Positions 2,876-40,217 of a stretch of DNA of 64,000 bases are shown piece after piece. A program made the position numbers and the translations under genes. The stretch is taken from positions 119,244 to 183,243 of the forward strand of contig FR901000.1 of the NCBI GenBank assembly GCA_000437915.1, given 5' to 3'. The stretch is from Subdoligranulum sp. CAG:314 (GTDB taxonomy: Bacteria; Bacillota; Clostridia; Christensenellales; CAG-314). Each line of letters begins with the position of its first letter. Within the stretch, counting starts at the first letter, position 1. The notes under the pieces are model-generated. The model saw only the letters and a program-made list of their open reading frames with translations. It made no database searches and had not been told where the DNA came from.

Positions 2876-2878
2876 CGG

Positions 2879-2900
2879 TACAATGATTGTATTTTACAAT
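2879..2900. promoter_or_regulatory. Candidate operator with three TACAAT/ATTGTA half-sites
   Basis: TACAAT-G-ATTGTA-TTT-TACAAT lies immediately downstream of the -10 box, in the intergenic region shared with the divergent MarR gene. Confidence 0.4.
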
Positions 2901-2935
2901 CAAAAATTTTAATCCATAGGAGGTAACAACGGATT

Positions 2936-6406: not shown

Positions 6407-6427
6407 CGGCAAAATTCTAATTGATTT

Positions 6428-6457
6428 AAAAAAGGAGTCTAAAAGACTCCTTTTTTT
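6428..6457 (+). terminator. Intrinsic terminator (copy 2 of the identical 30-nt hairpin)
   Basis: AAAAAAGGAGTCTAAAAGACTCCTTTTTTT, 22 nt after the stop codon. Confidence 0.8.
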
Positions 6458-6577
6458 ATGCAAAGCAAGCAGCGCACTCAATTTGTTTTTGCTGCCCGAA
6501 CATGCCGACGACGAGTAAAGCCAAACACCGACTAAAACCCGCAGTCCCTGACGGACAATTTTTTTTTAAACTTTAAT

Positions 6578-6609
6578 GCAAAAGGGGACGCAAATGCGTC
6601 CCCTTTTGC
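6578..6609 (-). terminator. Intrinsic terminator of the 6619-9888 gene
   Basis: GGGGACGC-AAAT-GCGTCCCC stem flanked by A and T runs, 10 nt after the minus-strand stop. Confidence 0.7.
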
Positions 6610-6618
6610 CTAGACAAA

Positions 6619-24716: not shown

Positions 24717-25418
24717 TTATTCCGCAGTTTCCAGCGCGATTTCTATCATCTGAGTAAACGACGTCTGCCTTTGCTCTGCGGGCAGAGACTCTCCGCGCAA
24801 AGGACAGTCGCTGACGGTGAGCACCGCAAGCGCCCTTTTGCCGAATTGCGCCGCCTTCATGTAAAGCGCCGCAGTCTCCATTTCTACCGCAAGCACTCCC
24901 ATACCTTTCCACTTTTCGAGCGAGTCGTCGTAAAAAACGTCGCTGCTCAATACGTTTCCCGTCCTAGCGTTGACGTTTCGTGCCAAAGCCGCGCTCTCCG
25001 CTTTTTTCAGCAGCCCGAAATCGCCTATCGGCGCAAAGTCGCCGGGCAGACGGTAGGATGCGGCAAACGCGCTGTTGGTGCATGCCGCCTGAGCCAGAAC
25101 TATGTCGCGCAGGTTCACGTCGTCGGCAACCGCGCCCGCGCTTCCCACGCGGATAATGCACTCAACGCCGTAGCAATCGAAAAGCTCGTGGGCGTATATG
25201 GCAATGGACGGCATGCCCATACCCGACGCCATGACCGAAACCCTCTTGCCTGCGTAAAAGCCCGTCCAGCCGTTTATACCGCGCACGTTGTTTACAAGCC
25301 GCGCGTTTTCCAGATAATTTTCGGCTATAAAGCGCGCCCGCAGCGGGTCTCCGGGCATAAGCACCGTTTTGGCAAAGTCTCCGTATTTCGCCGTGTTGTG
25401 CGGAGTAGGCGTTTTCAT
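24717..25418 (-). CDS. deoD: Purine nucleoside phosphorylase, DeoD type
   Basis: 233 aa. TPHN...VLMPGDPLRA...SGMGMPS...VEME motifs. Confidence 0.9.
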   Translation of the reverse strand: MKTPTPHNTAKYGDFAKTVLMPGDPLRARFIAENYLENARLVNNVRGINGWTGFYAGKRVSVMASGMGMPSIAIYAHELFDCYGVECIIRVGSAGAVADDVNLRDIVLAQAACTNSAFAASYRLPGDFAPIGDFGLLKKAESAALARNVNARTGNVLSSDVFYDDSLEKWKGMGVLAVEMETAALYMKAAQFGKRALAVLTVSDCPLRGESLPAEQRQTSFTQMIEIALETAE

Positions 25419-26086
25419 ATCTTTATCTCCTCCTCTATGAAATCGTTTCCGAGCAGTCCGCTGGCTCCTATTCTGTCGCAGCCGAGCAGGAGAAATTTCG
25501 CTGCCTGCTCAAAGGTTTTTATTCCTCCCGAAGCCTTTATTTTAAGCCCGTCGGGCAAATGCCGTTTAAAAAGACTTACGTCCTCCTCCGTCGCCCCGCC
25601 TCCGCCGAAGCCCGTCGAGGTCTTGATGAAATCCGCTCCGCAGTCCCCGATCAGCTTCAAGGCAAGAAGCTTTTCTTCGCGCGTCAGAAAACAGGTTTCG
25701 GCAATCACTTTAAGTATATATCCCTCGGTGAGAGCGCGCAGCGCTTCAAGCTCGGTTTTCACGTATTCCGTTTCGCCCGCTTTGAGCGCGCCAATGTTGA
25801 GCACGACGTCTATTTCTTCCGCGCCGTCCTCCAGCATTCCCGCAATCTCGAAAATTTTTGCGTCGGTGGAAACGTAACCGTTGGGAAAACCCGCAACCCC
25901 GCACACCCTGATTTGTCCGTCGGCGGCGCGCACCGCGTCCTCCACATAGCAGGGCGGCACGCAGACGCTTGCGGCTTTGAACCTTGCCGCAATCAAGGTT
26001 GCCTGCTCCACGTCGGCGCGGCTTGCCGTCTGCTTCAAAACCGTATGGTCCGTCCTTGAAATCACGAAACTCTTTTTCATATCCAT
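25415..26086 (-). CDS. deoC: Deoxyribose-phosphate aldolase
   Basis: 223 aa. IDHT-like RTDHTVLK, and the FIKTSTGF Schiff-base lysine motif. The ATG at 26080 is an alternative start. Confidence 0.9.
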   Translation of the reverse strand: MDMKKSFVISRTDHTVLKQTASRADVEQATLIAARFKAASVCVPPCYVEDAVRAADGQIRVCGVAGFPNGYVSTDAKIFEIAGMLEDGAEEIDVVLNIGALKAGETEYVKTELEALRALTEGYILKVIAETCFLTREEKLLALKLIGDCGADFIKTSTGFGGGGATEEDVSLFKRHLPDGLKIKASGGIKTFEQAAKFLLLGCDRIGASGLLGNDFIEEEIKI

Positions 26087-26106: not shown

Positions 26107-26135
26107 ATTATATTCTTAAACTTACTTTTTGTCAA
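26107..26135 (-). promoter_or_regulatory. Consensus sigma-A promoter of the deo operon
   Basis: Minus strand reads TTGACA, 17-nt spacer, TATAAT, about 20 nt upstream of deoC. Confidence 0.65.
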
Positions 26136-26248: not shown

Positions 26249-27049
26249 TCAATCGGCTCTTTGTTCGATACGCTCGAACAATCCGTATTTATTTTTTATT
26301 CTGTTGAGTTTTTCTAAAAAAGGATTTGTCAAAAGCAGCAGAAAAACGACGTTTGACGCCGCGTACACCGCCATAAAGGGCAGACTCGACGCTATAAGCG
26401 CCGCATATCTCGACCAGCTCCAGCTGCCGTCGAAATTCAGGACAGACCATACGTCCATCATGACGGAAAACAACACTCCGCCCAATATTCCCGCCAAAAC
26501 AAGCAAAAAGCGGTTGGGCTTTTTGCCCCGCTTGAAAATCAGTCCCGACAAAAGTCCAAGGAATCCCCATACAAACATCTGAAACGGAGTCCAGGGTCCC
26601 TGTCCGTAAAATATGTTGGACACCACGGCGGACAAGGCGCCGGTCACGAAGCCCGCCTGCATTCCGTAGGCTATCCCCGTGATGATCACCATGGCGGTAA
26701 CGGGCTTGAAGCCGGGAAGCGGCGCGAAAATCAGTCGTCCCACAACGGACAGCGCCGTAAGCACGGCAATAACCACAAGCTCGCGCGCGCCCGTTTTTCC
26801 CCTTTCAAAGCCGATAAAAAACGGGACGCACGCCAAAAAAGCGATAATCAAAGAAATTATGTTGTATTTTCTGTCGTCAAACAGCTTTACTCCGATAAAA
26901 ATCGCCGCGGGGATGGCAATCAGATAAACGCATAAAGATATCACGCTGCGCCAACGCGGCGCAACCCTTTTGCGCTTTTTGGGCGATGCGGAGCTTTCCT
27001 CGACGACGTCTTCAAGCGGCATGGCAAAGCAAATCAGTTTTTTATCCAT
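26249..27049 (-). CDS. ECF transporter substrate-specific (S) component, candidate corrinoid-specific (CbrT-like)
   Basis: 266 aa with about 6 hydrophobic helices. Last gene of the riboswitch operon and overlaps the EcfA stop by 8 nt. Substrate assignment is inferred from context only. Confidence 0.6.
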   Translation of the reverse strand: MDKKLICFAMPLEDVVEESSASPKKRKRVAPRWRSVISLCVYLIAIPAAIFIGVKLFDDRKYNIISLIIAFLACVPFFIGFERGKTGARELVVIAVLTALSVVGRLIFAPLPGFKPVTAMVIITGIAYGMQAGFVTGALSAVVSNIFYGQGPWTPFQMFVWGFLGLLSGLIFKRGKKPNRFLLVLAGILGGVLFSVMMDVWSVLNFDGSWSWSRYAALIASSLPFMAVYAASNVVFLLLLTNPFLEKLNRIKNKYGLFERIEQRAD

Positions 27050-28724
27050 CTTTCAATCCGTTTTTCAAACAAATTTCCGTTACCATATCCACGGTTACGG
27101 CGTTTTTGTACAGCACCCGCGAAATTCTGCTTGCGGCGGTTGTGTAAAAGGCGTTGGCGGAAAAGAACTTTACCGGATTGGCAAGCGAAACGATTTTGCC
27201 ATCGAAAAACATACCGCATCTGTCAGAGTGCTCGGCGGCAAACTCCACGTCATGCGTGACCATGACGATTGTTTTCCCGCGAGCTTTCAGCCCGTAAAGA
27301 ATGTCGGCAAGCTCCTGCTTGGAGCAGGCGTCCAATCCCTTGGTAGGCTCGTCCAACAGAATTATTTCAGGCTCCATGAGCAGAATTTTTGCAAACGCCG
27401 CCTTTTGCTGTTCGCCGCCCGACAGGTCGTAGGGATGAGAGTCCAACAGCTTCTCTATTTTAAGCTCCCGCGCAACCTCGTTCACCCTTTCCTCCGCCTC
27501 GTCTCCCGAATAACCCATGATTAGGGCGGCTTCCTTCAAGTCCTCCTTGAGAACGCTCTTGACAAACAGCGTCTGCGGATTCTGCGGCAAGGAGGAAAGA
27601 TTTTTTCTGTACAGCGAATTTCCCGCGTATTCCTTTATTTTCTTTCCCCAGAACCGCAGTTTTCCGCTGTAAAGACGGCTTATGCCGCTCATGACCCTGA
27701 GCATGGTGGTTTTTCCCGCTCCGTTGCCGCCGAGTATGCACAAAATCTCGTTTTTGTAAACCGTAAGCGACAGACCGTTAAGCACATCGGGCAGATTTCT
27801 TTCGTACCTGAAACAGCCCTCTGAAATTTCCACAGCCTTTTCCCTTTCGGAATAATCCTCGTCGGACACATCGTAACCGGGATAACGGTTGCCGTAATTT
27901 TTTTCCAGAAACTGCCTGCTTTCTCCGACGGTAAGCGGACAATCCCCCTTTGCGTCAAGCCGTCCGAATATCCTTATCCCCGACGGAAGCCCCGCAAGCA
28001 TTTTGTGCGGCTTGTCGGACGCTTTGAGAATGTTTCCTACGTTTCTCGGCGTATCCGTCAAAAAAATGCGGGCTTTGTCCATAAGCACCGCTTTGTGCGC
28101 CAGCGGAAACACCTCCTCCAATCTGTGCTCCGCCAACAGCACGGTAGTGCCTAGCTCCGTGTTGATTTTTTTCAGCGCTCCGATAAAATCCGACGCGGCA
28201 ATCGGGTCGAGCTGCGCCGTCGGTTCGTCCAGAACAAGTATTTCGGGCTGCATAGCCATGACTGACGCAAGATTCAACAGCTGCTTCTGACCGCCCGACA
28301 ATTCGCAGGTACGCTTTCTGTACCAGTCGCCGATTCCGAAAAAGCCGCAGATTTCCGCAACGCGGCGGCGAATTTCGTCCGACTCCGTACCGAGGCTTTC
28401 AAGCCCAAACGCCAGCTCGTGCCAAACCTTGTCGGTGACAATCTGATTGTCGGGATTTTGCATGACGAAGCCGATGTCCGTGACGGCCGTCCTGTCGTCA
28501 AGGTCGTCTATTTCCACGCCCTTGTAAAATATGCCGCCGCTTTTTGTGCCTTTGGGACGCAGCTGCTTTTTAAGCAGCCTCAATAGGGTGCTTTTGCCGC
28601 AGCCCGACTCACCGCACAGCACGACAAATTCTCCGCGCCCGATAGTCAAGCATATATTTTCCAAAGCCTTTTCATCTCTGTCGGGATAAGAAAAGCTCAG
28701 ATTTTCGAGCGTAAGGATTGCCAC
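27042..28724 (-). CDS. ecfA: ECF transporter fused double ATPase (EcfA-EcfA')
   Basis: 560 aa. Two Walker A motifs (GESGCGKST, GGNGAGKTT), two LSGG signatures and two Walker B motifs (LVLDEPT, ILLDEPT). Confidence 0.9.
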   Translation of the reverse strand: MAILTLENLSFSYPDRDEKALENICLTIGRGEFVVLCGESGCGKSTLLRLLKKQLRPKGTKSGGIFYKGVEIDDLDDRTAVTDIGFVMQNPDNQIVTDKVWHELAFGLESLGTESDEIRRRVAEICGFFGIGDWYRKRTCELSGGQKQLLNLASVMAMQPEILVLDEPTAQLDPIAASDFIGALKKINTELGTTVLLAEHRLEEVFPLAHKAVLMDKARIFLTDTPRNVGNILKASDKPHKMLAGLPSGIRIFGRLDAKGDCPLTVGESRQFLEKNYGNRYPGYDVSDEDYSEREKAVEISEGCFRYERNLPDVLNGLSLTVYKNEILCILGGNGAGKTTMLRVMSGISRLYSGKLRFWGKKIKEYAGNSLYRKNLSSLPQNPQTLFVKSVLKEDLKEAALIMGYSGDEAEERVNEVARELKIEKLLDSHPYDLSGGEQQKAAFAKILLMEPEIILLDEPTKGLDACSKQELADILYGLKARGKTIVMVTHDVEFAAEHSDRCGMFFDGKIVSLANPVKFFSANAFYTTAASRISRVLYKNAVTVDMVTEICLKNGLKDG

Positions 28725-29578
28725 AGAATATTCTCCTTTATTTCAATAACGGTGGAAAGCCACGCCAGCGCAGTCAACGCGGCGTACAGTGCGACGGCAT
28801 ACGGGCTTAGGTCGAGAGGCGAAAACGCGGGATAATAACTAAACTCCCCGTATCCGCAGGACATCGCAAAGCATACCGCCGCGACAAAAACCAAAATAAC
28901 CGCCAGCACAACGCTGTCCCGCGCGCTCCACGCAAACACGGAATAGCTGCTCCTTCCCTTTAATCCGTAGCCGCGCGCGCGCATGGAATCGCCCGTTTCC
29001 ACCGAACTTTCGAGACTCCACGTGACCAGAATGCTCATCACGCGCATTTTGCTTCTCAGTCTGTCCACAAAGCTCTTGGAGGTGTAAGTTCCCAACGCCT
29101 TCTGCGCGCTGTCGATTTCCTTGTAACGCCTTTTCAGCTTGGGAATAAAGCCGAGCGTCATGGACAAAAGGAGCGCAAGCTTGGGGATAACCCTTCCGAA
29201 CAGATAAATAAATTTGTCGGAACTCATGACCGCGTTGAAGCATTTGAACCAGTAAAACACCGACATAATCATGACTCCCACGGCAAAGCCGTAGCAGACG
29301 GCTTCGAGAGTTACGGGATTGTCGTTCATGAAAAACAAAATCGTTTCTCCGTTGTGGGAAAAAATCGGATTAGTCAAAGAAATGAGCAGCAGCACGGGAA
29401 CGGAATATGCAAGACTTGACGCAAGCTTTCTTGCGCCGACCAGCATACCGCAGAACGAAACCGCCCCGAAAAACGAAACGGCAAGCAAAACGGGGTTGAC
29501 GGTAAACATGGTTATGAATATCATCGCCGAAAAATAAATCATCGGAATGACGGGATGCATTTTTTCAAACGCCTTCAT
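28697..29578 (-). CDS. ecfT: ECF transporter transmembrane (T) component
   Basis: 293 aa polytopic membrane protein with the EcfT-type ARG coupling motif (SMRARGY). Confidence 0.85.
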   Translation of the reverse strand: MKAFEKMHPVIPMIYFSAMIFITMFTVNPVLLAVSFFGAVSFCGMLVGARKLASSLAYSVPVLLLISLTNPIFSHNGETILFFMNDNPVTLEAVCYGFAVGVMIMSVFYWFKCFNAVMSSDKFIYLFGRVIPKLALLLSMTLGFIPKLKRRYKEIDSAQKALGTYTSKSFVDRLRSKMRVMSILVTWSLESSVETGDSMRARGYGLKGRSSYSVFAWSARDSVVLAVILVFVAAVCFAMSCGYGEFSYYPAFSPLDLSPYAVALYAALTALAWLSTVIEIKENILWQSLRSKI

Positions 29579-30119
29579 CGTAGAACCATCCGCCTCCCAC
29601 GTCTCGCCCCAAATCGCAGGTGTAAACCCACTCTATCACGTCGCCGTCTTTGAGCACATACTTGCTGCACCCGTAATTGGGAAATTGTCCGTTCACCTTG
29701 TACATCCACCCCGAAAGCGGTCCGCAGGAAAATTCGTAAAGAAAATTTATGCCTCTTATGTACACGCTTCCGAATGCGTTTTCGTTGGCGCCCTGATATT
29801 CCATCTGAATTTTGTTGTGTCTGACCGCTCTGTTCAAAATATCGTAAACCGTGTCGTCTTTCCGCAAAACATATTCGGTTTGTTCAAGGATAATCCCGTC
29901 GGACGGAACGTATTTTTCAAAACGCAGGCTTTCGTCCAGGTCGTCCCAGTTGTCGAGTATTGTCCCGCATTCTATGCTTAAAAACACGGTTTCGCTTTCC
30001 GGCGTTATATCGTCAAGATGCGTAAGATAGTAGTCCTCGACAGACTGAAATTTAGTGCCTGCGCAAAGAATCGCAATGAGAAACGCCACTATTGCGACAG
30101 CCAGAAAATCCTTTTTCAT
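29565..30119 (-). CDS. DUF4430 (transcobalamin C-terminal-like) domain protein, membrane-anchored
   Basis: 184 aa. N-terminal hydrophobic anchor, then LSGWMYKVNGQFPNYGCSKYVLKDGDVIEWVYTCDLGRDVGG, the characteristic DUF4430 signature. Confidence 0.75.
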   Translation of the reverse strand: MKKDFLAVAIVAFLIAILCAGTKFQSVEDYYLTHLDDITPESETVFLSIECGTILDNWDDLDESLRFEKYVPSDGIILEQTEYVLRKDDTVYDILNRAVRHNKIQMEYQGANENAFGSVYIRGINFLYEFSCGPLSGWMYKVNGQFPNYGCSKYVLKDGDVIEWVYTCDLGRDVGGGWFYDEGV

Positions 30120-32032
30120 TCGTCACTCTCCGGCATGGCGTTAAGCGCCTTTAATTTTTTTCTTTTGCGTATGTTAAAGAAAAGCCATACGGCGACCGAC
30201 ACGGCGACAGCACCGACGCAAATACCCGTCACAAGCGCCGCAAAAAGATTGTCCGCCTGAGTTTTGCTTTTGACAAGTCCCTCTATGTCCGACGCTTCGA
30301 GCTGCGCTCTGTCGTATTCGGACAAGGCAAGGTATCTGTCGTAAAGCTCGTGCACGGTCTTTCTCTTGCTCAGAGTTATCGAATCGAAGGGATAAAGCTC
30401 CTCTTTTATCGCTTTTCTCAACGCCTCTATCTCGGCGTAAATGGCGTCAATCTCGTTTTTGGCTTTTTCCAGCTTTATTGTATATTCCTGTTTTCCGTCA
30501 AAGTCAACGCTGTTGTTTATTTTGCTCCACAGCCTGAGCACCTCCGACCTATAAGCGGTGGTCAAGGTTTCGGGCAAACCTACGAGCGCCTCTATATCGG
30601 ACGGGGAGAAATACTCGGTGGGCACGGTTACTCCCGCGTCGCCGCTGTTGTATTGCAGCTCTTCCTTTTCAAAAGGTATGTCAGCCGCGACAAGCAACAC
30701 GGACAGGTCTTTGTAGTTTGAAACATAGCTGCGCTCCTCGACGGGTATTTCAAGGTAGGCGTCGTAAACCTCTTTAAGTTCGACGACAGAAGCGTCGGGA
30801 GTAAGCCCGCTTATTTTAAGCTCGACGTCCTTTATCAAAAGGCGCAGCTTTTCGCTCTGCTCCTCGCGGAAGTCGTAAAGTCTCCTTTTCCCCTCGAGAA
30901 ACCTCACAAGCGCGGTCAAACCGTAAAGCGTCTGTTCGCTCGCCATTGTGTTGGGCATACCCGCAACCGCCGTCGGATTGTCCTCGTCGTTTACGTAAGA
31001 ATGCGTAAACCCTCCCGACGACGTCCGATATTTCATTATTCCGTCCAAAAGCGTGTTGGGCAATCCGTCGTCCCCCGTTTTGACGAATCTTTCGTCCGTC
31101 AAAGGGTTTATTCCGAGAGAAGTAAGAGCGACGAGCACCTGAACGGTGCTTTCGCAATTGGGCATCCCCCAGCTGAAATAATCGCCGTCCTGCCTCTGCG
31201 TGCGGGACAGAAGCGCAACCGCTTTGTCGCACGCCTCCCTCACCTTCATGACGACGGGAAGCTCGGAAATATTCTCGTTTAAGTAGGTATATTCTTTTTC
31301 GCTGTTGTAATAAGGCGCAAAACATTGAAGCGTCATCGCCGTAATATCGGGGTCGGAAACGCTGCCGGTCAGCGCCCAGCCGCCGTCCGCAAGCTGCAAT
31401 CCGAGTATCTGAACGATAATGTCGTCGCGCGAATAATAAGCTCCCTCCGGTATTTCGTAATACATGCTGTCCAGCGTTATCAGTCCCCAGATAAGACCGT
31501 TTATGCCCTGTCTTCCAAGGCTCCCCTTTCCGTTTTCGTCCACACGAGCGTAAGTCCCGTCGGCAATCAGGTCTATATCGCCTCTGCCGTCGCCGTCGCG
31601 GTCCTCTCCGAAAGCGCGCGGATTGCCTCCCGAAGCAAGCACGGCGAGAGAAATTCTGTGCCATTCGGTAGCTTTCGCCCTGTCCAGCTTGTCTGGACCG
31701 TCATACCTTTTTTGCACGTTGTCGCTGAGAACGGCAAGATATCCCGCCTGATTGTCCTCCACTCCCAGTCTTCCCAGCCCTATCGGAAACCAGTCGCCGG
31801 GAGTCGTGCCCGCCTGTTCCAGAAACGCGTCGTTGAAAAGAAATCCGTCTTTTTCCGCGCCGACGTCGTTTTTTTTCCACTCTATGATGCCGTAAGCCGT
31901 CTCACGTATACTGTCCGCCGAAATTTTCTCCGTCTCAACCGACGCAAGACAAAGGGCAGGGACGCCCAAAGGCGTTCCTGCCGAAACAAAAATCGATAAA
32001 ATCACCAACAATGCGAAAACAAATTTTTTCAT
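30116..32032 (-). CDS. Alpha/alpha-toroid (prenyltransferase / terpene-cyclase-like repeat) protein with C-terminal membrane anchor
   Basis: 638 aa with a signal peptide. QW-type repeats (LQLADGGWAL, RTQRQDGDYFSWG, YRTSSGGFTH). A coiled C-terminal part, a TM helix (LFAALVTGICVGAVAVSVAVWLFF) and RKRKK. Confidence 0.65.
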   Translation of the reverse strand: MKKFVFALLVILSIFVSAGTPLGVPALCLASVETEKISADSIRETAYGIIEWKKNDVGAEKDGFLFNDAFLEQAGTTPGDWFPIGLGRLGVEDNQAGYLAVLSDNVQKRYDGPDKLDRAKATEWHRISLAVLASGGNPRAFGEDRDGDGRGDIDLIADGTYARVDENGKGSLGRQGINGLIWGLITLDSMYYEIPEGAYYSRDDIIVQILGLQLADGGWALTGSVSDPDITAMTLQCFAPYYNSEKEYTYLNENISELPVVMKVREACDKAVALLSRTQRQDGDYFSWGMPNCESTVQVLVALTSLGINPLTDERFVKTGDDGLPNTLLDGIMKYRTSSGGFTHSYVNDEDNPTAVAGMPNTMASEQTLYGLTALVRFLEGKRRLYDFREEQSEKLRLLIKDVELKISGLTPDASVVELKEVYDAYLEIPVEERSYVSNYKDLSVLLVAADIPFEKEELQYNSGDAGVTVPTEYFSPSDIEALVGLPETLTTAYRSEVLRLWSKINNSVDFDGKQEYTIKLEKAKNEIDAIYAEIEALRKAIKEELYPFDSITLSKRKTVHELYDRYLALSEYDRAQLEASDIEGLVKSKTQADNLFAALVTGICVGAVAVSVAVWLFFNIRKRKKLKALNAMPESDE

Positions 32033-33867
32033 GACAAATTCAAACCGTAAGCGGCAATCAGCTCATTGTATACTCTGTCCACAAGCTCCTGCGAAGCGTC
32101 CCAGACGGAAATTTCCTCAACCGCTTTTGCGTACGCTTCTTCGCCCGAACCGTAAAATTCATTTTCTCTTATCAGAGCGAGCAGCTTGTTCACCCGTGCG
32201 TAATCCGCAAACTCGGCAAAGTCCGAGCCGGAGCCGCCCGTAGAGTCTCCGCCGCCCACGTCGCGCCCCAGCGCAAGCGTAAAGCATACGCGCACCACGT
32301 CGCCGTCCTGCGGAAAATAATCGGCAAAGCCGTAGTTGGGAAAGGAGCCGTTGACGCTGTACATCCAACCCGAGCCGCTTGTGTAATCGAATTCTCCGAG
32401 ACTGTACCTGCCGTCGTCGTCTTTTTGCAGAGTATAAGAAAAAACTTCCAGACGCTCCGCAAGTCCGTCGGCGATTCTGTTTCCGTCCAGGTCAAGTCCC
32501 TTTATCGACGCCAGATAAAAGCCCGAATCAAGCTCGCCCGTATATCGGTATTCAAGCCCGTAAGCGCTCAGCAGACGCGTCAGCGTCACGGAAAAGGGTT
32601 CGCCGTCGAAAACCGTGAGCAGCATGGGTTCGATAAAATATCCGCAGCCTACGGTAAAGCCTTCGAGCGAAAAGACGACCTCTCCTATTTCGCCGTCGGC
32701 GCCCGCGCCGACATAGGTCATTCTGAACGTCTGCACGGTCTGCCTGCCGAAAGCCTCCGCAACGACGCGGAACAAAAACGCTTTTCCCTTGCAGCCCTCA
32801 AAAACGCCAGCCTCGAAATTTATACGATAGCTTGTCTTTTCGGAATCCGACCACACCTTCTTCAAATCGGATTGTCCCAACGCTACGAAGTCGTCCCGCC
32901 CGTCGTCGGCGTCCATATCCGCGAAAAACGACAGAGAGTTGTCGGGCAGCTTTGCTCCCAAAGCGTCCTCCGCCGTCACCTCGAAGGTAAAAACGCTGCC
33001 CTTGTATTCCTTGCCTTCCTCCAACGAAAGCCTTTCAAAGCGCGGAGGCGCGTCGGAATACCGCACCGAAAACAGCTCGGTTTTTTGCATGGAGCCGCTG
33101 CGCGCGGTTACGCGCACCTCGTACTCCCCCGCCTGCGGCATAACGAGAAGATAATTCCCGTCATTTGGAGAAAGAACATCTCCGTTGACCGTCACCTCCG
33201 TTTCGCAGGCAACCTTGCCGTAAGTCGTTCTCACCGCAAAGCTCAATGTGTCCGACGCCGTGTCCTGAGAGACAAGCGTCGTATTCACCTTGAATCCCTC
33301 GTAAAAAACCGTCTCCGTCAAGGTTGACGCGGCGTCGCCGCTCCTTGCGCTCAGAACAAACTCGTGCTGCTTGTTTTCGGTAAGCTTAAACTCGTATTTT
33401 CCGTCTGAAACGGGACTGATAAGCTTTCCGTCGGCCGTCACCGTCAGCGCACAGCTCTCGTCGTTGCAATAGGCGGCGGCGGAAAAATAAAGCACGTCGT
33501 CACGTATCACGCGCTCGGACAAATCCGTACGCACAACAAAATCCGCCCTGTAAACAATGTTGTAGCTGCGCGTCTCCTTTTTGGAGCCCTTTTTCGCGGT
33601 GAGCAGCACGGCATTGTCACCCTCGTTCAGATATACGGTAAATCTTGTCCCGTCGCTCTTTGCCGTTATTCCGTTGCAGCGCACTTCTATCTCGCATCCG
33701 ACTCCGCCGCAGGTGGCAGTGGCTCCGAAGGAGTACTGCGGAGCGCTTACAACCAGTCCGTCGACAATATCGGTTGCAAAGACAAAGGCGCTCCCGCATG
33801 CGGCGGCAATACACAGCACGGCGGCAAGAACAACGGCAATGGACAGGATTTTAATTGCTTTTTTCAT
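32029..33867 (-). CDS. Surface lipoprotein with tandem Ig-like/cadherin-like beta-sandwich repeats and a C-terminal DUF4430 domain
   Basis: 612 aa. Lipobox IAAAC-GS. About four repeats of the pattern T..VNG..L.......Y.......GE...V.A.SG......T..V.Y. C-terminal GSGWMYSVNGSFPNYGFADYFPQDGDVVRVCFTLALGRDVGG. Confidence 0.7.
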   Translation of the reverse strand: MKKAIKILSIAVVLAAVLCIAAACGSAFVFATDIVDGLVVSAPQYSFGATATCGGVGCEIEVRCNGITAKSDGTRFTVYLNEGDNAVLLTAKKGSKKETRSYNIVYRADFVVRTDLSERVIRDDVLYFSAAAYCNDESCALTVTADGKLISPVSDGKYEFKLTENKQHEFVLSARSGDAASTLTETVFYEGFKVNTTLVSQDTASDTLSFAVRTTYGKVACETEVTVNGDVLSPNDGNYLLVMPQAGEYEVRVTARSGSMQKTELFSVRYSDAPPRFERLSLEEGKEYKGSVFTFEVTAEDALGAKLPDNSLSFFADMDADDGRDDFVALGQSDLKKVWSDSEKTSYRINFEAGVFEGCKGKAFLFRVVAEAFGRQTVQTFRMTYVGAGADGEIGEVVFSLEGFTVGCGYFIEPMLLTVFDGEPFSVTLTRLLSAYGLEYRYTGELDSGFYLASIKGLDLDGNRIADGLAERLEVFSYTLQKDDDGRYSLGEFDYTSGSGWMYSVNGSFPNYGFADYFPQDGDVVRVCFTLALGRDVGGGDSTGGSGSDFAEFADYARVNKLLALIRENEFYGSGEEAYAKAVEEISVWDASQELVDRVYNELIAAYGLNLS

Positions 33868-33869: not shown

Positions 33870-36293
33870 TCAGGCAACGTCGACGTTTTTGAACTCGACT
33901 CTTGCTATTTCGTTCCCGTTTTCGTCCGAAAGCGTCGCGACAAAGGTAAACGCGTCGAAAATCATCATGTACTTGCTGCTTATATCGCTATAAGACACCT
34001 TGACCGTTATCACTCCGTTTTCTTCGGAAACAACGGTAAAAGGAACGGTGTACTCAGTTCCCCAGGACGCAACCATTTTCAAGGTCAGCCTGTCGGAAGA
34101 AATAGGCGCTCCAGACGAATCCTTCGCCGTAATCGTAAGAGTAATATCGCCGCTTATTTTGTCCCCGTCGGCAATACCGGCGACGGAAAACTGCGGCGGC
34201 GCGATATAAATCATTTCATACTCCTCGCGCAGAGTTTCGTCCTGAGACACGCTGAACGAAACAGCCAGCTTGAAATTGTCCTCCACCTCGTACCACATCG
34301 TCAAAAGATTGTCAAAGTCAAGCGCTATTTCCGCAACGGTGTCATTTGCGGAATAAGTAACGGTATAATTGAAGCCCTCGCTGAGAGTAGTAAAGTTAGG
34401 CGCAGACATTCCGCAGTCAACCGCTATTGAAAGCCTGTCCTTGACCGAAACCGCGTTGCCGTCCGCATCCTTTACCGTGACGGTAAAGGTCGAGCCGTCC
34501 GTTTCTCTGTTAAGCCCGTCTTTTTTGAGAGAGCTTTCTATTTGCAGCTGCTCGGTTTTTTCCACCGCAAAGCTCCACGATTTTTCGGCGTTGTTCTTTT
34601 CGACGCAAACCGCCGTTACAACTATTTCGTTTTCGCCGAGCGCTAGGCTTACCGAACAGTTTTTGCCGTCAACCGTGCCGTTTGTCTGCGCGGTATTGTT
34701 GTAAACGGAAATCTGACAGTCATATTCGCCGTAATTTACGCTCGCCGTAAATTCCAGCGTCGTCTTTGCGGTTGTCATTTCGTCGGCAATGCCGACGAAA
34801 GTTTCCTCGAAGAAGTAATACTTTTCGCCGTAAGAAACGGTCGCCGAGCCGTTCCAGCCGCGCCCTAGCTCGCAGAGAGTTCCGTCCTGATAATAACCCC
34901 GTTCGTCGAAAGAAACGGCAACGGTCGCCTGCTCGGCTATGCCGGCGAAAGCGTTGAAGCCGATAAAGGACAAACTGCAAGCTTCGAGATTGACCGATTC
35001 AAGAAGAACGGCGTTTTCAAAAGCTCTGCCCCAGATTCTTTGGAGCGAAGCAGGGGCGGTGTATTCCTTAACGCCGCACGCCGCGGGAAAATTGATTAGC
35101 TGCGTTTTGTCCGCAGTATACATAATGCCGCCGTCCGAGGTAAAATAAGGGTTTAGCCCGTCGATTTCGATGCTCTCCAAAGCGTCGCAGTCGCCGAACA
35201 TATCGGCATTTTCGCTTTCAAGATAGGTGCTGTAACCGCCTATGTATCTTAGCGAATAGGGCAAGGACACTTTTTTTAGCGACGAACACAGCTTGAACGC
35301 GTCCCTCTCGATGCTTTGAAGCGACTCGCACTCGGAAAGGTCGATTTCCGTCAGTTGAGTTTGATACTCGAAGCATTTCTGCCCGATAAATTCCAAAGAT
35401 ACGCAGCCCGAAAAGTCAACCGTTTTGAGTTTTGTATCCATTGCGGGATACCTGCCGACAAAAGCAGAGCTTGAAACGGTGGTGAGCTTGCTCAGACCTT
35501 TTAAAGAAACAAATTCAAGCTCGCCGCAGTTTGAAAAGGCAGAGCTGCCTATTGTTTCCAATTCGACGGCGCCGTCAAGATAAACCTTTTTTACGTCGGA
35601 ATAAGAAAAAGCATAGGCGCCTATTTCCGTGATTTTGTTGCCCTCCGCGTCCGTCGCGGGCAATACGACTATGTCGCCGTCAAAGCCGTCGGCAAGACCG
35701 CTCAACTTCACCTTTCCCTCTTCCTCCGTCTGCGAAAATTCAAACATTTCCGCAGGAGTGAAATTCATCTCGTACCGAGCGGTAAAGGTAAGCGGCTGCG
35801 TAACTGCCACGTTTGCGTCCGCCGCATAATCCGTCGAGCCGCTTTTCCACCCGACAAAGCTATACAGGTCCGAATCCGACGGCTCCGCGACGTAATCCGA
35901 AAGCGCCAGCGTATAACCGTGCTCCGCCTTCAAACTGTCCGCGCCCGTCATTTTGCCTTCTCCCGCGTCGAAAACGACGTCGTAGCTTTTTAAGGTATAA
36001 TGCGCGACAAGCGTGATGTCCCCTTTGATTATTATCGAGTCGGAGGCGGAGTATTCGACGGAGCCGGCGCTCCACCCCTTGAAATCATACCCCTCCTTTT
36101 GCGGAGCATAATTTTCGAGTTGCAGCACGCTGTCCTCCTCGACTTCAAGCCCCGCGCTCAAATCGCGCCCCTCCACAACGCCGCCGTCAAGCTCGAACGT
36201 GACGCTGTAAACCTTAGGCTCGCCGTCGCAGGCGGCAAAAACCATAAGCGCCGCGACAAGGCACAAAACAATCAGCAAAATTTTTTTCTTCAT
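33870..36293 (-). CDS. Surface lipoprotein with Flg_new repeats, BspA-type LRRs and Ig-like domains; first gene of the cobalamin-riboswitch operon
   Basis: Start moved to the ATG at 36293 (MKKKILLIVLCLVAALMVFAAC-DG lipobox, AAGGAGA SD). The ORF-track extension to 36632 runs through the riboswitch. Confidence 0.8.
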   Translation of the reverse strand: MKKKILLIVLCLVAALMVFAACDGEPKVYSVTFELDGGVVEGRDLSAGLEVEEDSVLQLENYAPQKEGYDFKGWSAGSVEYSASDSIIIKGDITLVAHYTLKSYDVVFDAGEGKMTGADSLKAEHGYTLALSDYVAEPSDSDLYSFVGWKSGSTDYAADANVAVTQPLTFTARYEMNFTPAEMFEFSQTEEEGKVKLSGLADGFDGDIVVLPATDAEGNKITEIGAYAFSYSDVKKVYLDGAVELETIGSSAFSNCGELEFVSLKGLSKLTTVSSSAFVGRYPAMDTKLKTVDFSGCVSLEFIGQKCFEYQTQLTEIDLSECESLQSIERDAFKLCSSLKKVSLPYSLRYIGGYSTYLESENADMFGDCDALESIEIDGLNPYFTSDGGIMYTADKTQLINFPAACGVKEYTAPASLQRIWGRAFENAVLLESVNLEACSLSFIGFNAFAGIAEQATVAVSFDERGYYQDGTLCELGRGWNGSATVSYGEKYYFFEETFVGIADEMTTAKTTLEFTASVNYGEYDCQISVYNNTAQTNGTVDGKNCSVSLALGENEIVVTAVCVEKNNAEKSWSFAVEKTEQLQIESSLKKDGLNRETDGSTFTVTVKDADGNAVSVKDRLSIAVDCGMSAPNFTTLSEGFNYTVTYSANDTVAEIALDFDNLLTMWYEVEDNFKLAVSFSVSQDETLREEYEMIYIAPPQFSVAGIADGDKISGDITLTITAKDSSGAPISSDRLTLKMVASWGTEYTVPFTVVSEENGVITVKVSYSDISSKYMMIFDAFTFVATLSDENGNEIARVEFKNVDVA

Positions 36294-36384: not shown

Positions 36385-36413
36385 AAAAAAAATCTCCCGA
36401 TTGTCCCGGGAGA
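36385..36413 (-). terminator. Riboswitch expression-platform terminator
   Basis: Minus strand reads TCTCCCG-GGACAAT-CGGGAGA followed by T8, 92 nt upstream of the first start codon. Confidence 0.75.
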
Positions 36414-36479: not shown

Positions 36480-36633
36480 CGCCCAAGAATGTATTACCTT
36501 TTGGCAATAAGGCAGGTCTCCCGACTTATGGCGACTGTGCGCCAAATACGGTAATGGCTGTTGCGACGGATTCTCACCGCTCTTCCCGCTGTTGACCGCT
36601 TGACAAGCGTCGTTGCTTGACTTCGGAACCAAA
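36480..36633 (-). promoter_or_regulatory. Cobalamin (B12) riboswitch aptamer
   Basis: Minus strand reads GGTTCC...AACAGCGGGAAGAGCGGTGAGAATCCGTCGCAACAGCC...GCCATAAGTCGGGAGACCTGCC. This matches the conserved GGGAA/GGTGnnAATCC core and the B12 box (AGTCGGGAGACCTGCC). Confidence 0.8.
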
Positions 36634-36650
36634 TTGCTTATTCAATTGAG

Positions 36651-36787: not shown

Positions 36788-36816
36788 ACAAAACAAAAGC
36801 GCCGCAAAAGCAGCGC
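36788..36816 (-). terminator. Intrinsic terminator after the coiled-coil protein gene
   Basis: Minus strand reads GCGCTGC-TTTT-GCGGCGC followed by TTTTGTTTTG. It separates this gene from the riboswitch operon. Confidence 0.65.
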
Positions 36817-36848
36817 TTTGACACTCTGTAAAAAATTTTGCGGTGCGC

Positions 36849-39800
36849 TTACACTGCCGCGTACTCCACTTCAAGCAGGGAAAGCGCTTTGTTCAGTTTC
36901 AATCGGTTGCACACTATTCTTTCGTCCACAATCAGCCAATTGCCCCTTTCTCCGTTGTGTGCGGGCTGAGCCAAAAGCAGACTCAGATATATCAGCAGTC
37001 TGTCCGTATTTTCTATGCCGGCAAGCTCTATCGCATTCTGTTCGGAATCGGAAAAAACAAGCTCGTTTTCAAAGCTTACGCCAAGACGCCCCTCCGACAT
37101 GATTTTCAACAGCGAATCCGCATACGCAACCACGCTTTTGACCTTGTCGTAAATGATTGCCGAAGCAACCTTAGTTTCGTTGAACGCCTCCGTCAGACCG
37201 CCGAGTATTTCCGCCTCGTTGGCAGCCTGCGCCAGACTGACTTTCAGCGCGCCCGTATTGACGAACACATTTAGCTCGTAGTCCAGCTTTTCTTCAAGCT
37301 CCGCCGCTTTGGCGTCGAGATTGGCAAGCCGTCTTTCGAGATGCGCCGCCCTTTCCGCCGCGCGGGGAATCTCTTTTTCTCGGGGCAGAAGCTCAAGCGC
37401 GCGCTTTTCAGTATCCGTCCTTTCGGTGAGTTTTTCAAACAGATAATCGAAATTTTTTACGCCTCTGCGCGTCGCCTCTATATCCTCGTCGGAAAGGTCG
37501 GCTATCGCGCGTATCCACTCCTCGTTTCTGTCGGAGCTTTTGAGCATTTCCGACAGAGAACGCCTGCTTTCTTCCAGAGCCTTTTCCTTCACGTCGCAAT
37601 CTATTTCGAGACAGCGCAGCTCTACGCGCTTGTCGAACACCTGACGGCTGAGATTTTCCTTGCTGTCGAAAAGCATATTGCGCTCGCTCTCCACCTCCTC
37701 CAGCTCTCCCTCAAGCTCGGCAAGCCTTTCCTCTGTTTCGCCGCCGGCAAATTCCTCCGCCTTTTCGCCCGCAGCCACGATTTCTCTTTCGTTGGCGCGT
37801 ATTTTTTGCAGCGTCTCTATGATAAGCTCCTGAATCCTCAGACGCTTGTTGTCAAGCTGGTCTATGGTGTCGAGAATTGTTTTGTGCTGTTTGTAGGACA
37901 GCGACAGCCTGTCTCCTATGTCCGCAAGCTCGTGCTTGATTTGCTCGTTGGTCTGCATAATCACTTCCAGCCCGCCCTCGTCGGAAACGCTCCTGCGGTT
38001 GTCCGAAAGATAATTTAGGCGGGTCGTAAGCTCGGTCAGTCTGCCTTTCTTCTGTTCCAAATCGCGCTTCAAGGCTCTCAGCTCGGTCTCGTTTTTTACC
38101 ACGTCCTCCTGAATACCCAGCAGATATCTCGTCGCGCCGTTTGTTTCCAGAGATTTCAGATATTGCTGTGTGGACTCCGCCTGATTCTGCGCCACAAGCT
38201 CCAAATATTTTCTGTTTATATTGCTTTTTTCCTGCCGCAGGGACTCTATTTCGGCGTTGTTTACGGCTATATGCCGCGAAATTTCCCCCATCGCGCCTTT
38301 GAGCATAGCCGACGCGCGCATTGCCTCCTGCCTGTCCATAGTCCTGTTTGCCAGGTCGCTTTTGAGCCGCTCTATTTCAGGGTCGTCAAGCTGCGCGGGC
38401 AGCGCGGACATGACGGAAATATTGTCCGGCTCCTCTCGTCCCGCCAGCAACACCTGCCGCTTGAACTCCTCCTCCTTGGCAAACTGCTTTCTCACAAGAA
38501 CGGTGGAAATGGACTCGCTCGATTGTTCAAGCCGCATTTCCTGAAAGCCGTTGTCCTCCAAGGCACGGCGGAAATTGTTGAGTTTTTCTTTAAGAGAGTC
38601 GTTTATAAGCGTCAGCTTGTCTATTTTCGCGTCGATAACGCTTACTATCGCGTCCTTTGCCTTCAACGGCGCTACCGTGCTGTCAAGCGCCATAAGGCTG
38701 TTCAGCTGCTTGGTCTGTCCCGAAATGGTCAGCTCCTTGTCCGCTATGTCGCTTTCCCTCGCCGCAATTTCGGTTTGAAGTCTGTCCGTCTGCGCGCGGA
38801 TTTCGGTAATCTTGACCTCGGCGCGCACGTTTTCCATCAGTTCCCCTATGCTCTGCTCGGGAATATTGAAAGACTCCATACTCTGTCTTATTTCGGCTAT
38901 CGACTGCTCCACGTCGGCAAGATTGTTTTTGAGGTTTACCTTTTTGGTTTCCAGCCTGTCAAGCTGCACGTTGAGCTTGCCCATGCTTTCGGTAAGCTCG
39001 TTGTTGCGCCTTTTCAGCTCCTCCGCCTTTTTCTGTTCGTCAATGGCGATTTCCATACGGGACTTTTTGGCGATAAGGGAATCCGCCTGCGCCTGCTTGG
39101 ACACAAGCTGCTCCGTTATCGAAGCAAATTCGCCGTCCTGCCAATCTATTTCGCCTTTTAACGCTTGCCTTTTTTCTTTGAGAGCTTCAAGCGCCTGCTT
39201 CTCCGCGTCCAGACGGCGCATTCTTGCGACAAGCTCACAAGCCTCGTCGTATGCCGCAAGCTGTCCCCTTTTCAAATCTATGTAGTCCTTGTTTTCAAGC
39301 AGCTTTTCAAGCTTGGCGCTGTCGGAGGCGTATTCGGCGGCAAGAGCTCCCGCCGCTTTTTGACCGAACATATTGCGTTTAAGCTTTTCAAGCTCGGACG
39401 CCCTTTCCTCCCGCTCGGCAAGGTTTGCCTTGACGGCGGCGAACAGCTTTTCTATATTTTCCTTTGCGGAAAAGGGAATGTCCGCGTCAGCCATGCGCCT
39501 TGCGCGTTCCAAAGCCTGCCCGTGGCGTTCCTTCAAACCCGCAAAAACCTTTTCCCCCTCGTCGGCCGCCCTCAAAAGCCCGTCAAGGTCGGCAAAGCTC
39601 CTTGCGGAACCCTTTTTTACAAATTCCTTAAATCCGTCGGCGGAGGCAAAGCAATTTTGCGCAAGCTCCCGCAAGTCGCAGCCTGCAAGCCTGAAAAGCT
39701 CCTCGTTGACGCGCTTTTCGCGCGCTACGACCTCCGTCTTGCCGTCGCAGTCTTTTTCTTTCAGCGCGCGGCGGGTGACGCCCTCGGCGTTTGTAGTCGC

Positions 39801-40010: not shown

Positions 40011-40217
40011 GCTTTCCTCCGAGGGGAACACAAACTGCGTTCTGAATTTATTATAATTTTATTGCTGAACTGTTTGAATTTTTACAAATGTGTGCTAAAA
40101 TCTTCTTTACGGAAAAAAAGCTCCGCTTAAAGCAACGTTTTTCTTTTGTTTATTATACCACAGCTGAAAAATAAATCAAGCGGAATTTTCCATTTGACTA
40201 TTAAGAGGTAATTGCTT

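Follow-up and report, generated by a model that had tools for sequence, protein, structure and literature searches.

A seven-gene unit behind a cobalamin riboswitch

The window analysed here – a stretch of 64,000 nucleotides from contig FR901000.1 of the gut Clostridia bacterium Subdoligranulum sp. CAG:314 – contains a seven-gene unit on the minus strand, as are all features described below, which extends to position 26249 and of which the three genes originally flagged are the middle part. In order, these genes encode an LRR lipoprotein, a 612-aa DUF4430 protein, an alpha/alpha-toroid protein, a 184-aa DUF4430 protein, EcfT, EcfA-A' and an S component, with overlaps of 4-28 nt at all junctions.

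A cobalamin riboswitch aptamer (RF00174) is found upstream at 36494..36648, with a score of 38.8 bits against a gathering score of 31.5 bits (E 2.8e-6 over the whole window). This aptamer is shortened, the 62-nt peripheral insertion of the model being represented by 11 nt, and it contains the B12 box (AGUCGGGAGACCUGCC) as well as the riboswitch core (GGGAAG..GCGGUGAGAAUCCG). A hairpin of the intrinsic-terminator type (TCTCCCGGGACAATCGGGAGA) with eight consecutive T after it (36385..36413), 80 nt 3' of the aptamer and ~100 nt 5' of the first start codon, is probably the expression platform of this riboswitch. High intracellular B12 would lead the leader riboswitch to stop transcription, and all seven genes would be expressed when B12 is low. 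The earlier note, which had placed the toroid and DUF4430 genes under a B12 riboswitch, was right on this point and on the sequence features of the genes, which all stand out clearly from chance; to its picture has to be added an 807-aa gene between the riboswitch and the first DUF4430 gene.

Four predicted surface proteins

The first gene (33870..36293) encodes this 807-aa predicted surface lipoprotein, with Flg_new, LRR_5 and Ig-like domains and a signal that ends in FAAC. The second (32029..33867) encodes a 612-aa secreted or lipid-anchored protein, which displays a hydrophobic segment at its N-terminus, Cadherin-like beta-sandwich repeats (PF12733, E 1.7e-6) and a C-terminal DUF4430 (SLBB) domain (PF14478, E 1.1e-10, 42.3 bits, at 32284-32394). 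The smaller DUF4430 protein (184 aa, 29565..30119), whose start codon overlaps the stop codon of the toroid gene in the sequence ATGA, carries a membrane anchor or signal near its N-terminus (residues 4-22) and has a stronger match to PF14478 (E 4.1e-19, 69.2 bits, domain at 29619-29858); its sequence is 100% identical to that of a protein recorded for Subdoligranulum sp. CAG:314. Both DUF4430 proteins exceed the gathering score of 23.8 bits and share the signature, in the forms SGWMYKVNGQFPNYGCSKYVLKDGDVIEW and SGWMYSVNGSFPNYGFADYFPQDGDVVRV, so that the toroid gene is indeed flanked, as claimed earlier, by genes for two signature-bearing DUF4430 proteins. On these profile matches, both are assigned to the transcobalamin-like SLBB clade (PF14478), with a predicted secreted location.

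The toroid protein itself (638 aa, 30116-32032) is predicted to be secreted and held by a C-terminal membrane anchor. It consists of an alpha/alpha-toroid domain (residues 36-400, 30833..31927), delineated by AlphaFold2, Foldseek, hhalign and HMMER, a conserved all-helical C-terminal extension (residues 401-596, 30245..30832) and a transmembrane segment (residues ~597-621, 30170..30244), recognised from the AlphaFold2 model and hydrophobicity, which is followed by a basic tail (RKRKKLK). The QW-like repeats noticed earlier (LQLADGGWAL and RTQRQDGDYFSWG) were located, and the AlphaFold2 model (pLDDT 88.3, pTM 0.81, domain pLDDT mostly >90) folds residues ~39-380 into an alpha/alpha toroid, for which all confident Foldseek matches (prob ~1.0) are alpha/alpha-toroid proteins. 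Helices of the extension span residues 394-575 (pLDDT about 90) and contain many invariant residues; this region could serve as a stalk. All accessory proteins carry a signal or anchor at the N-terminus, and for both the toroid and the small DUF4430 protein the predicted location is outside the cytoplasm, with a tether to the membrane, in keeping with the cell-surface location that had been suggested for them.

A dedicated ECF importer

The last three genes encode (i) an EcfT (CbiQ-family) transmembrane component (28697..29578; PF02361, E 4.2e-8, above cutoff), (ii) a fused EcfA-A' double ATPase (27042..28724; TIGR04520, 343 bits against a 315-bit cutoff, with two ABC_tran domains, PF00005) and (iii) a CbrT-like S component (26249..27049; PF07155 and PF12822, both above cutoff). 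With EcfT, two EcfA domains and S component encoded together, the importer is by its gene content a group I-type ECF transporter with a dedicated module. The best solved relative of the S component is CbrT, the S component of ECF-CbrT (6FNP_A, E 4.9e-13), the next one being about eight orders of magnitude worse (1.5e-4), and NCBIfam returned only weak matches to folate-family and riboflavin S components. ECF-CbrT of Lactobacillus delbrueckii transports cobalamin and cobinamide (Santos et al., 2018, eLife, PMC5997447), and the two systems have in common a homologous S component and a standard EcfT plus EcfA/A' energising module. However, L. delbrueckii CbrT uses a shared general module (group II) rather than a dedicated one with fused ATPases, and it has no described extracellular partner, whereas four surface proteins are co-transcribed with the importer here. 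The S component in the window also has two extra hydrophobic segments at its N-terminus.

Conservation of the split arrangement

Among related genomes with enough sequence around the toroid gene (72 loci), a small DUF4430 gene is found 3' of the toroid gene in every case (72/72), the two being adjacent, within 1 kb, in 70 of the 72. A homologue of the 612-aa DUF4430 protein is encoded 5' of the toroid gene in 66/68 loci, and the importer is similarly widespread (EcfT in 64/69, EcfA-A' in 60/64). The first gene is more variable, this position being occupied by an LRR protein in 19 of 62 loci and by a giant protein that contains another toroid domain in 31 of 62. A survey of toroid and DUF4430 genes behind RF00174, which the earlier note had suggested, detected the riboswitch 5' of 11 of the 14 related loci sampled, with scores of 34-107 bits in homologous loci. 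The split-gene arrangement is therefore real and widely conserved, although a natural fusion does exist, in an ORF (L079:3006-8609) that combines the toroid with a DUF4430 domain.

Remote kinship to transcobalamin

When deep profiles were compared by hhalign, the toroid matched the alpha domain of transcobalamin (TC) over 212 columns (Prob 95.8%, E 7.9e-9) and the DUF4430 family matched the TC beta domain over 83 columns (95.3%, E 2.2e-8), while cross, reversed and shuffled controls, which comprised no cyclase or prenyltransferase profiles, reached at most 4%. As measured by such profiles, the link between toroid and TC alpha domain is as strong as the accepted link between DUF4430 and the beta domain. 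With shallow profiles, neither of the two was detected. The most conserved toroid motifs, QGING (175-179) and SDPDITAM (226-233), align in hhalign to the N-terminus of TC alpha6 and to the alpha7/alpha8 loop plus the start of alpha8, respectively, i.e. to regions that in rat TC surround cobalamin on its beta-axial side (PMC11107200).

This kinship is remote. PF01122 (Cobalamin_bind) matched neither the protein in the window, nor 37 family members (E up to 10), nor the family consensus, and HMMER profile searches with the toroid never reached TC. A TC profile gave only 342 matches at E<=0.001 among 1.84 billion representatives, of which the best 150 span 59-961 aa and include many short fragments. 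The proposal that the toroid is TC-like thus stands in the sense of remote homology to the alpha domain, as seen by hhalign, but not in the sense of a likeness specific to TC, for which PF01122, HMMER and Foldseek offered no support.

The animal carriers (TC, intrinsic factor and haptocorrin; PF01122 and PF14478) likewise combine an alpha/alpha toroid with a beta-grasp domain. They are, however, single soluble chains of ~410 aa, whereas here two membrane-tethered chains are made from separate genes. Moreover, the toroid domain is ~40 residues longer than in the animal carriers and followed by ~240 more residues (helical region and membrane anchor), and the cobalt-coordinating His of TC aligns with a Ser (S226).

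Earlier predictions of such systems

An arrangement of this kind has already been predicted twice. Burroughs, Balaji, Iyer & Aravind (2007, Biol Direct 2:4, PMC1796856) predicted that toroid and SLBB proteins encoded in CbiO/CbiQ operons scavenge B12, described bacterial proteins with fused toroid and SLBB (DUF4430) domains and proposed an evolutionary link between these bacterial proteins and animal transcobalamin. Their systems resemble ours in combining secreted or surface SLBB proteins with an alpha/alpha toroid, in having another SLBB paralogue within the operon and genes for a CbiO-like ATPase and a CbiQ-like membrane protein, and in the predicted function in B12 scavenging. That study, which was purely computational and is older than the ECF concept, stresses fused toroid-SLBB proteins, whereas here these are separate, oppositely anchored membrane proteins; neither 'riboswitch' nor 'CbrT' is found in its text. 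In 2019, HHpred comparisons linked the extracellular proteins Lsa1839/Lsa1840 of Lactobacillus sakei to the TC beta/alpha domains, and the two were modelled as a heterodimer that would supply an ECF transporter (bioRxiv 10.1101/864751). That locus was linked to heme by a mutant phenotype, with no mention of a riboswitch, whereas a cobalamin riboswitch is present here, as are two further surface proteins and, on the toroid, a long helical extension, perhaps a stalk, and a transmembrane anchor. These are independent predictions of the same mechanism. The idea of a bipartite bacterial ancestor or analogue of the animal carriers, as the earlier note put it, is not new, and the split form need not be ancestral because fused bacterial toroid-SLBB proteins have also been described (PMC1796856).

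A model for corrinoid capture and import

The gene content, domains, synteny and riboswitch conservation computed here, along with TC homology of both halves and the lack of catalytic motifs in the toroid, lead us to propose that this operon serves to scavenge and import corrinoids (vitamin B12), with a toroid-DUF4430 capture pair, a reading that we consider rather probable. EcfT, fused EcfA-A' and CbrT-like S component would form the dedicated ECF importer, and the four surface proteins would capture corrinoids outside the membrane. Central to this would be a pair made of the toroid, anchored at its C-terminus, and a DUF4430 (SLBB, beta-grasp) protein, anchored at its N-terminus, which are distant homologues of the TC alpha and beta domains. 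By analogy with the animal carriers, in which alpha/beta association is cobalamin-dependent and isolated domains bind cobalamin (PMC11107200), toroid and DUF4430 would form a ligand-dependent heterodimer that holds a single corrinoid clamped between the two chains, and would then hand this corrinoid over to the S component. The LRR protein and the larger DUF4430 protein (612 aa) probably reach further out from the cell, as extra binders or tethers.

Assembly in trans of toroid and DUF4430 is plausible. A fused toroid-DUF4430 AlphaFold2 model built from an unpaired alignment had a pLDDT of 74.9 and a pTM of 0.55, and it had no TC-like two-domain match in Foldseek (TM to TC of 0.40 vs 0.43 for the toroid alone). 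Pairing is in addition ambiguous because the window encodes two DUF4430 proteins for one toroid. We advance only tentatively, as possible rather than probable, the more specific idea that the tethered toroid and the small DUF4430 protein make up a corrinoid-dependent, two-chain TC-like clamp docking on ECF-CbrT.

The toroid could instead be an enzyme of the terpene cyclase/prenyltransferase superfamily, acting on an envelope lipid or a corrinoid rather than providing a binding half-site, a reading in line with the name that NCBI gives to it and its homologues ('terpene cyclase/mutase family protein'). HMMER profiles built from the toroid find squalene-hopene cyclase first in PDB (E 7.7e-5, over ~105 residues of the QW-repeat region) and also match drimenyl diphosphate synthase, while in Foldseek TC is equalled or outranked by class II terpene synthases, which are the top matches, and by farnesyltransferase beta, all of these matches being weak. 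Pfam matches in the family point the same way, but every one falls under the gathering score: 15.5 bits for SQHop_cyclase in the toroid itself against a 26.1-bit cutoff, with sub-threshold matches only in 22/37 members (including to SQHop_cyclase_C), and for Prenyltrans (PF00432) matches in 9/37 members (best E 1.3e-5), with 16.9 bits for the consensus against a 26.5-bit cutoff. No DxDD, DDxxD or NSE/DTE motif occurs along the whole length of the protein, the nearest to DxDD being the invariant D227-P-D229-I-T-A-M, and the toroid domain has no conserved Cys (only H125 and H344 are conserved), hence no Asp/Cys/His zinc site. The earlier note had named a closer similarity to true terpene cyclases with an intact catalytic DxDD/DDxxD pocket as the finding that would speak against it; the similarity in HMMER and Foldseek is there, the catalytic motifs are not, and the resemblance to squalene-hopene cyclase is, as far as these profiles go, at the superfamily level only. 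Considering also that the toroid is predicted to lie outside the membrane, presumably away from prenyl diphosphate pools, and that its gene is consistently accompanied by those for DUF4430 and ECF proteins, mostly under a B12 riboswitch, we give the enzyme reading scarcely any credence.

If toroid and DUF4430 are both binders, they might still work separately, as a relay of independent corrinoid-binding proteins (each DUF4430 protein, perhaps the toroid too) that pass their ligand inward, much as BtuG/BtuH/BtuJ of Bacteroides would, with the toroid serving chiefly as a platform for docking, or as a scaffold, on the ECF transporter. Two DUF4430 proteins for one toroid, and no confident docking in the fused model, would fit with this, as would the animal beta domains, which can bind cobalamin in isolation and exist alone in some organisms (PMC11107200). 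Multi-protein extracellular relays are also documented in Bacteroides. We nevertheless find a relay unlikely, given that the toroid and small DUF4430 genes are translationally coupled and so consistently close, that the conserved toroid motifs align with ligand-facing TC positions and that the two domains occur fused, in nature and in the proteins described in 2007. The ligand could alternatively be heme or another tetrapyrrole, as proposed for lsa1836-1840 of L. sakei, the sole experimentally studied locus of this architecture, which was assigned to heme uptake and not to B12. Its component order is the same (S, A-A', T, beta-like, alpha-like), and uptake of 57Fe-hemin fell 5- to 8-fold in its deletion mutant and was restored by complementation (10.1101/864751). 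Yet that likeness is drawn from published gene order and HHpred assignments, the authors of that study point to the absence of the cobalamin-binding residues from their own S component (10.1101/864751), and in our case a cobalamin riboswitch precedes the operon, as in most of the relatives sampled, with B12-specific CbrT as the closest solved relative of the S component. Heme import by the present system is therefore very unlikely.

Implications

The proposed corrinoid-dependent clamp has an analogue in Bacteroides, where BtuG/BtuH/BtuJ carry out riboswitch-controlled corrinoid capture at the surface and feed a membrane transporter, although in another type of envelope, with the TonB-dependent BtuB in the outer membrane. 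The folds would not be related, BtuG being a beta-propeller. To our knowledge, the textbook definition of ECF transporters is that they function without a solute-binding protein. Were the two-chain clamp to prove true, it would therefore represent (i) an extracellular substrate-capture module for ECF transporters, (ii) a counterpart in Gram-positive gut bacteria of the Bacteroides BtuG system and (iii) a living split version of the fold used by animal B12 carriers.

Organisation of the operon

The three genes singled out in the earlier note, a toroid gene flanked by two DUF4430 genes and read as lying behind a B12 riboswitch, turn out to be the middle of an ECF transporter operon, a single tightly packed unit on the minus strand that runs from 36648 to 26249. 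Profile searches bear out both the domains (Pfam and NCBIfam) and the riboswitch, although one more gene, for an 807-aa protein, sits between the latter and the first DUF4430 gene. The cobalamin riboswitch aptamer (RF00174; 36648-36494, minus strand), which at 38.8 bits clears its gathering score of 31.5 (whole-window E 2.8e-6), is the sole Rfam match within the 64 kb. Its alignment covers the conserved core as well as the B12 box AGUCGGGAGACCUGCC, and its peripheral element measures just 11 nt as opposed to a 62-nt insertion in the Rfam model. The riboswitches of several homologous loci score much higher (88-107 bits), and that of the window may be an abbreviated form that selects differently among corrinoids. 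At 36413-36393, 80 nt downstream of the aptamer, a hairpin (TCTCCCGGGACAATCGGGAGA) runs into eight T, and past this hairpin come a Shine-Dalgarno sequence (AAAGGAGA) and the ATG at 36293.

Seven ORFs follow in series, all on the minus strand, with neighbours overlapping by 4-28 nt. The 807-aa product of the first (33870-36293) has a lipoprotein-like signal (…MVFAAC) and Flg_new, LRR_5 and Ig-like domains, while the second (32029-33867; 612 aa) combines a Cadherin-like beta-sandwich with a C-terminal DUF4430. The 638-aa toroid protein (30116-32032) and a small DUF4430 protein of 184 aa (29565-30119) precede the transporter proper, which consists of a CbiQ/EcfT protein (28697-29578), a fused EcfA-A' ATPase that exceeds the TIGR04520 cutoff (27042-28724) and an ECF S component (26249-27049). 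No NCBIfam model matched any of the accessory proteins.

At the upstream end, a strong terminator hairpin (36796-36819, minus strand) directly after a coiled-coil-rich 1060-aa ORF (36849-40031, minus strand) isolates the riboswitch operon from that ORF. At the other end, a perfect sigma-70 consensus (TTGACA, 17 nt, TATAAT; 26107-26135, minus strand), just 3' of the S-component gene and 5' of an ORF at 25415-26086, probably marks where the B12 operon ends and the following unit begins; by eye, the latter resembles a deoC/purine nucleoside phosphorylase/phosphopentomutase cluster.

The transporter and its likely substrate

Among all solved structures, the S component best matches chain A of 6FNP (E 4.9e-13; the runner-up, another S component, reaches 1.5e-4), that is, CbrT of the Lactobacillus delbrueckii ECF-CbrT complex, for which transport of cobalamin and cobinamide has been demonstrated experimentally (PMC5997447). 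Together with the riboswitch, this CbrT-like S component makes a corrinoid the most likely substrate. As read from its genes, the operon would be a dedicated ECF-CbrT-type corrinoid importer, controlled by a B12 riboswitch and equipped with four co-transcribed predicted surface proteins, and corrinoid acquisition is very probably its function.

The S component differs from CbrT of L. delbrueckii, which has 182 aa only, by an N-terminal extension of ~85 residues that precedes the CbrT-homologous core (89-256) and holds two extra strongly hydrophobic segments (residues 36-54 and 63-81). It might be a point of contact with the membrane anchors of the DUF4430 and toroid proteins.

Fold and neighbours of the toroid protein

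The AlphaFold2 model of the toroid protein, built from a 37-sequence alignment, is confident (pLDDT 88.3, pTM 0.81) and consists, from N- to C-terminus, of a signal helix, an alpha/alpha toroid (~39-380), an all-helical extension (~394-575) and a long helix that turns into a transmembrane segment (597-615 by hydropathy) with RKRKKLK behind it. From this topology the bulk of the protein is predicted to lie outside the membrane, to which it would be tethered by its C-terminus. The ~200-residue helical extension between toroid and anchor (residues 401-596; 30245-30832, minus strand) is strongly conserved and matched no Pfam family above noise; its pLDDT is about 90 when the toroid protein is modelled alone, and this confidence is lost when it is modelled fused to its DUF4430 partner.

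Single-sequence searches of the PDB with the toroid and small DUF4430 proteins gave zero matches, and hmmsearch of the PDB with a DUF4430 profile gave chance matches only. Against the PDB, Foldseek with the full-length toroid model returned alpha/alpha-toroid proteins exclusively, none of them strong (best E 3e-3), including drimenyl diphosphate synthase, farnesyltransferase beta, Rv3377c, GH-type six-hairpin hydrolases and, at rank 10, transcobalamin (TC) in complex with CD320 (4ZRP_B; E 0.03, TM 0.43). A structural comparison with TC had been proposed in the earlier note, and TC is indeed among the matches, but terpene synthases, farnesyltransferase beta and GH88/GH105-type hydrolases are equally weak neighbours, which Foldseek could not tell apart (all E > 1e-3, TM 0.36-0.51). 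HMMER searches of the PDB with toroid-family profiles reached squalene-hopene cyclase (E 7.7e-5; residues 466-570, the QW-repeat region) and drimenyl diphosphate synthase but never TC, and Pfam scans of the protein and its family never matched PF01122, giving sub-threshold hits to SQHop_cyclase_C and Prenyltrans only.

These cyclase-type matches account for the source annotation 'terpene cyclase/mutase family protein' and are what could be said for an enzymatic role. The protein sequence lacks D.DD, DD..D and NSE/DTE motifs and the family has zero conserved cysteines, which leaves neither the acid of class II cyclases nor the zinc site of prenyltransferases. Kinship with true terpene cyclases, which the earlier note had set against its own reading, is seen as a resemblance by HMMER but not as an intact DxDD/DDxxD motif, and an enzymatic role for the toroid is among the less likely readings. 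The motif DPDITAM was considered as a degenerate DxDDTA and rejected, since the HMMER register against squalene-hopene cyclase (466-570) misses D374-D377 and the protein is without D.DD.

Distant homology to the two transcobalamin domains

Profile-profile comparison was made with deep profiles. A human TCN2 sequence, which matched database entries at 98-100% identity, served solely as a probe, and a TC profile run against 1.84 billion representative proteins yielded 342 unannotated matches at E<=0.001, from which 68 sequences with 21-81% identity to the reference sequence formed the TC-family alignment. The toroid alignment held 230 sequences, including the paralogous toroid domain of giant neighbouring proteins. 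With these, hhalign paired the toroid with the TC alpha domain (Prob 95.8%, E 7.9e-9, 212 columns) as well as it paired, under identical conditions, DUF4430 with the TC beta domain (95.3%, E 2.2e-8, 83 columns), which is an accepted relationship and had been taken for granted in the earlier note. Controls (cross-pairings, a reversed template and five column-shuffled templates) gave <=4%. When the profiles were shallow, the toroid reached 0.5% against an alignment of TCN2 sequences from mammals only, a negative that carries no weight because the accepted DUF4430/TC-beta pair was also missed (2%).

This alignment pairs the most conserved toroid motifs with several TC segments. QGING (175-179) aligns with the N-terminus of TC alpha6 (YYQY), SDPDITAM (226-233) with HSVDTAAM, which comprises the alpha7/alpha8 loop and the start of alpha8, NCEST..Q (292-298) with NVYST and MASEQ (363-367) with MISQ. 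Two of these TC segments, the N-terminus of alpha6 and the alpha7/alpha8 loop, lie along the beta-axial face of cobalamin in the rat protein (PMC11107200). Ser226 aligns with the His that coordinates cobalt in TC, so this feature is not conserved in the toroid protein. A fair statement, on the strength of these alignments, is that the toroid and DUF4430 proteins are remotely homologous to the two TC domains, but that the toroid cannot be placed nearer to TC than to the rest of the six-hairpin superfamily. The proposed kinship with animal carriers stands as distant homology, HMMER, Foldseek and PF01122 giving no sign of a specific closeness of the toroid to TC.

Conservation of the arrangement

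Two strict toroid-family peptide patterns matched 175 of 185,579 species-representative genomes, and the best 80 of these relatives, nearly all MAGs of gut or rumen Clostridia, were surveyed, neighbours being counted only at loci with enough flanking sequence. The co-occurrence of toroid and DUF4430 genes behind RF00174 that had been anticipated is borne out: a small DUF4430 gene lies 3' of the toroid gene in 72/72 loci (<=1 kb away in 70/72), and RF00174 precedes the operon, on its strand, in 11 of 14 sampled loci. Further downstream come EcfT (64/69), EcfA-A' (60/64) and a recognisable S component (49/58), while a larger DUF4430 protein is encoded 5' of the toroid gene in 66/68. Two of the related loci, L062 (1435-5356) and L077 (3125-5057), have two or three separate cobalamin riboswitches 5' of the same operon type, one of the copies in L062 preceding a gene for an extra DUF4430 protein.

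The first gene is variable, encoding an LRR protein as in the window in 19/62 loci and, in 31/62, a 1300-2000-aa protein with a second toroid domain. This second domain is paralogous and about 43% identical (e.g. 2453-7588 in the related locus L036, and about 30 others). Relatives with the giant protein seem to have two toroid/DUF4430 pairs per operon, compared with a single toroid for the two DUF4430 proteins of the window. In another related locus (L079, 3006-8609), the giant and the large DUF4430 proteins are joined in frame in a single 1868-aa ORF (toroid, Big_3, DUF4430), so that both domain types occur here naturally fused.

Proposed assembly in trans and earlier proposals

The core of the operon is best described, from sequence comparison, as a putative split, membrane-tethered pair of toroid and beta-grasp proteins with distant homology to both domains of TC. 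The toroid and small DUF4430 genes overlap (ATGA), their products have complementary predicted topologies (anchored C-terminally and N-terminally, respectively), and in animal carriers the association of alpha and beta domains is cobalamin-dependent and isolated domains bind the ligand (PMC11107200), all of which is consistent with the assembly in trans that the earlier note had put forward. A test construct in which the mature toroid and DUF4430 proteins were concatenated (topologically a membrane hairpin) was modelled with AlphaFold2 from an unpaired block alignment (pLDDT 74.9, pTM 0.55; stalk <50, linker also of low confidence), and its comparison with TC, in which Foldseek cannot span the 280-residue insert between the domains, brought no improvement (2BB6_A, TM 0.40). 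The two proteins would form a ligand-dependent two-chain clamp on the corrinoid, a mechanism that we advance tentatively, as nearly balanced by its alternatives. The main one is a relay of independent binders among the surface proteins, for which the ligand binding of isolated carrier domains could speak.

Much of this has precedents. Burroughs, Balaji, Iyer and Aravind defined in 2007, within the SLBB superfamily, the transcobalamin-like clade now known as DUF4430, whose members in bacteria are secreted proteins, often with an alpha/alpha toroid fused to one side or the other, in operons that often carry a second paralogous SLBB protein and CbiO-like and CbiQ-like genes and in genomes usually without key B12 biosynthetic enzymes (PMC1796856). 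Verplaetse et al. described the L. sakei lsa1836-1840 locus (components in the order S, A-A', T, TC-beta-like and TC-alpha-like protein), modelled the extracellular pair as a heterodimer that delivers to the ECF transporter and ascribed the locus to heme uptake from a deletion phenotype (bioRxiv 10.1101/864751). By that precedent the present system could be specific for heme, which is less likely given its CbrT-like S component and riboswitch. Our literature search on DUF4430 and transcobalamin-like proteins found no report in which a toroid/DUF4430 pair from a bacterium is shown to bind a corrinoid. The interpretation of a TC-like pair beside an importer is therefore already in print, computationally since 2007, and the locus in the window is a newly found and experimentally untouched case, a good experimental target rather than a conceptual surprise.

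Significance

Gut communities are shaped by competition for B12. The capture machinery of Bacteroides is well described; that of Gram-positive Clostridia is, to our knowledge, hardly described. As for the origin of animal B12 carriers, the link was proposed in 2007 already, and direct ancestry is undemonstrated by the present comparison. The type of operon described here is conserved across many uncultured Clostridia of the gut, it bears on whether ECF transporters can use extracellular binding partners, and its toroid and DUF4430 proteins offer a concrete pair with which to address high-affinity corrinoid capture at the Gram-positive surface.
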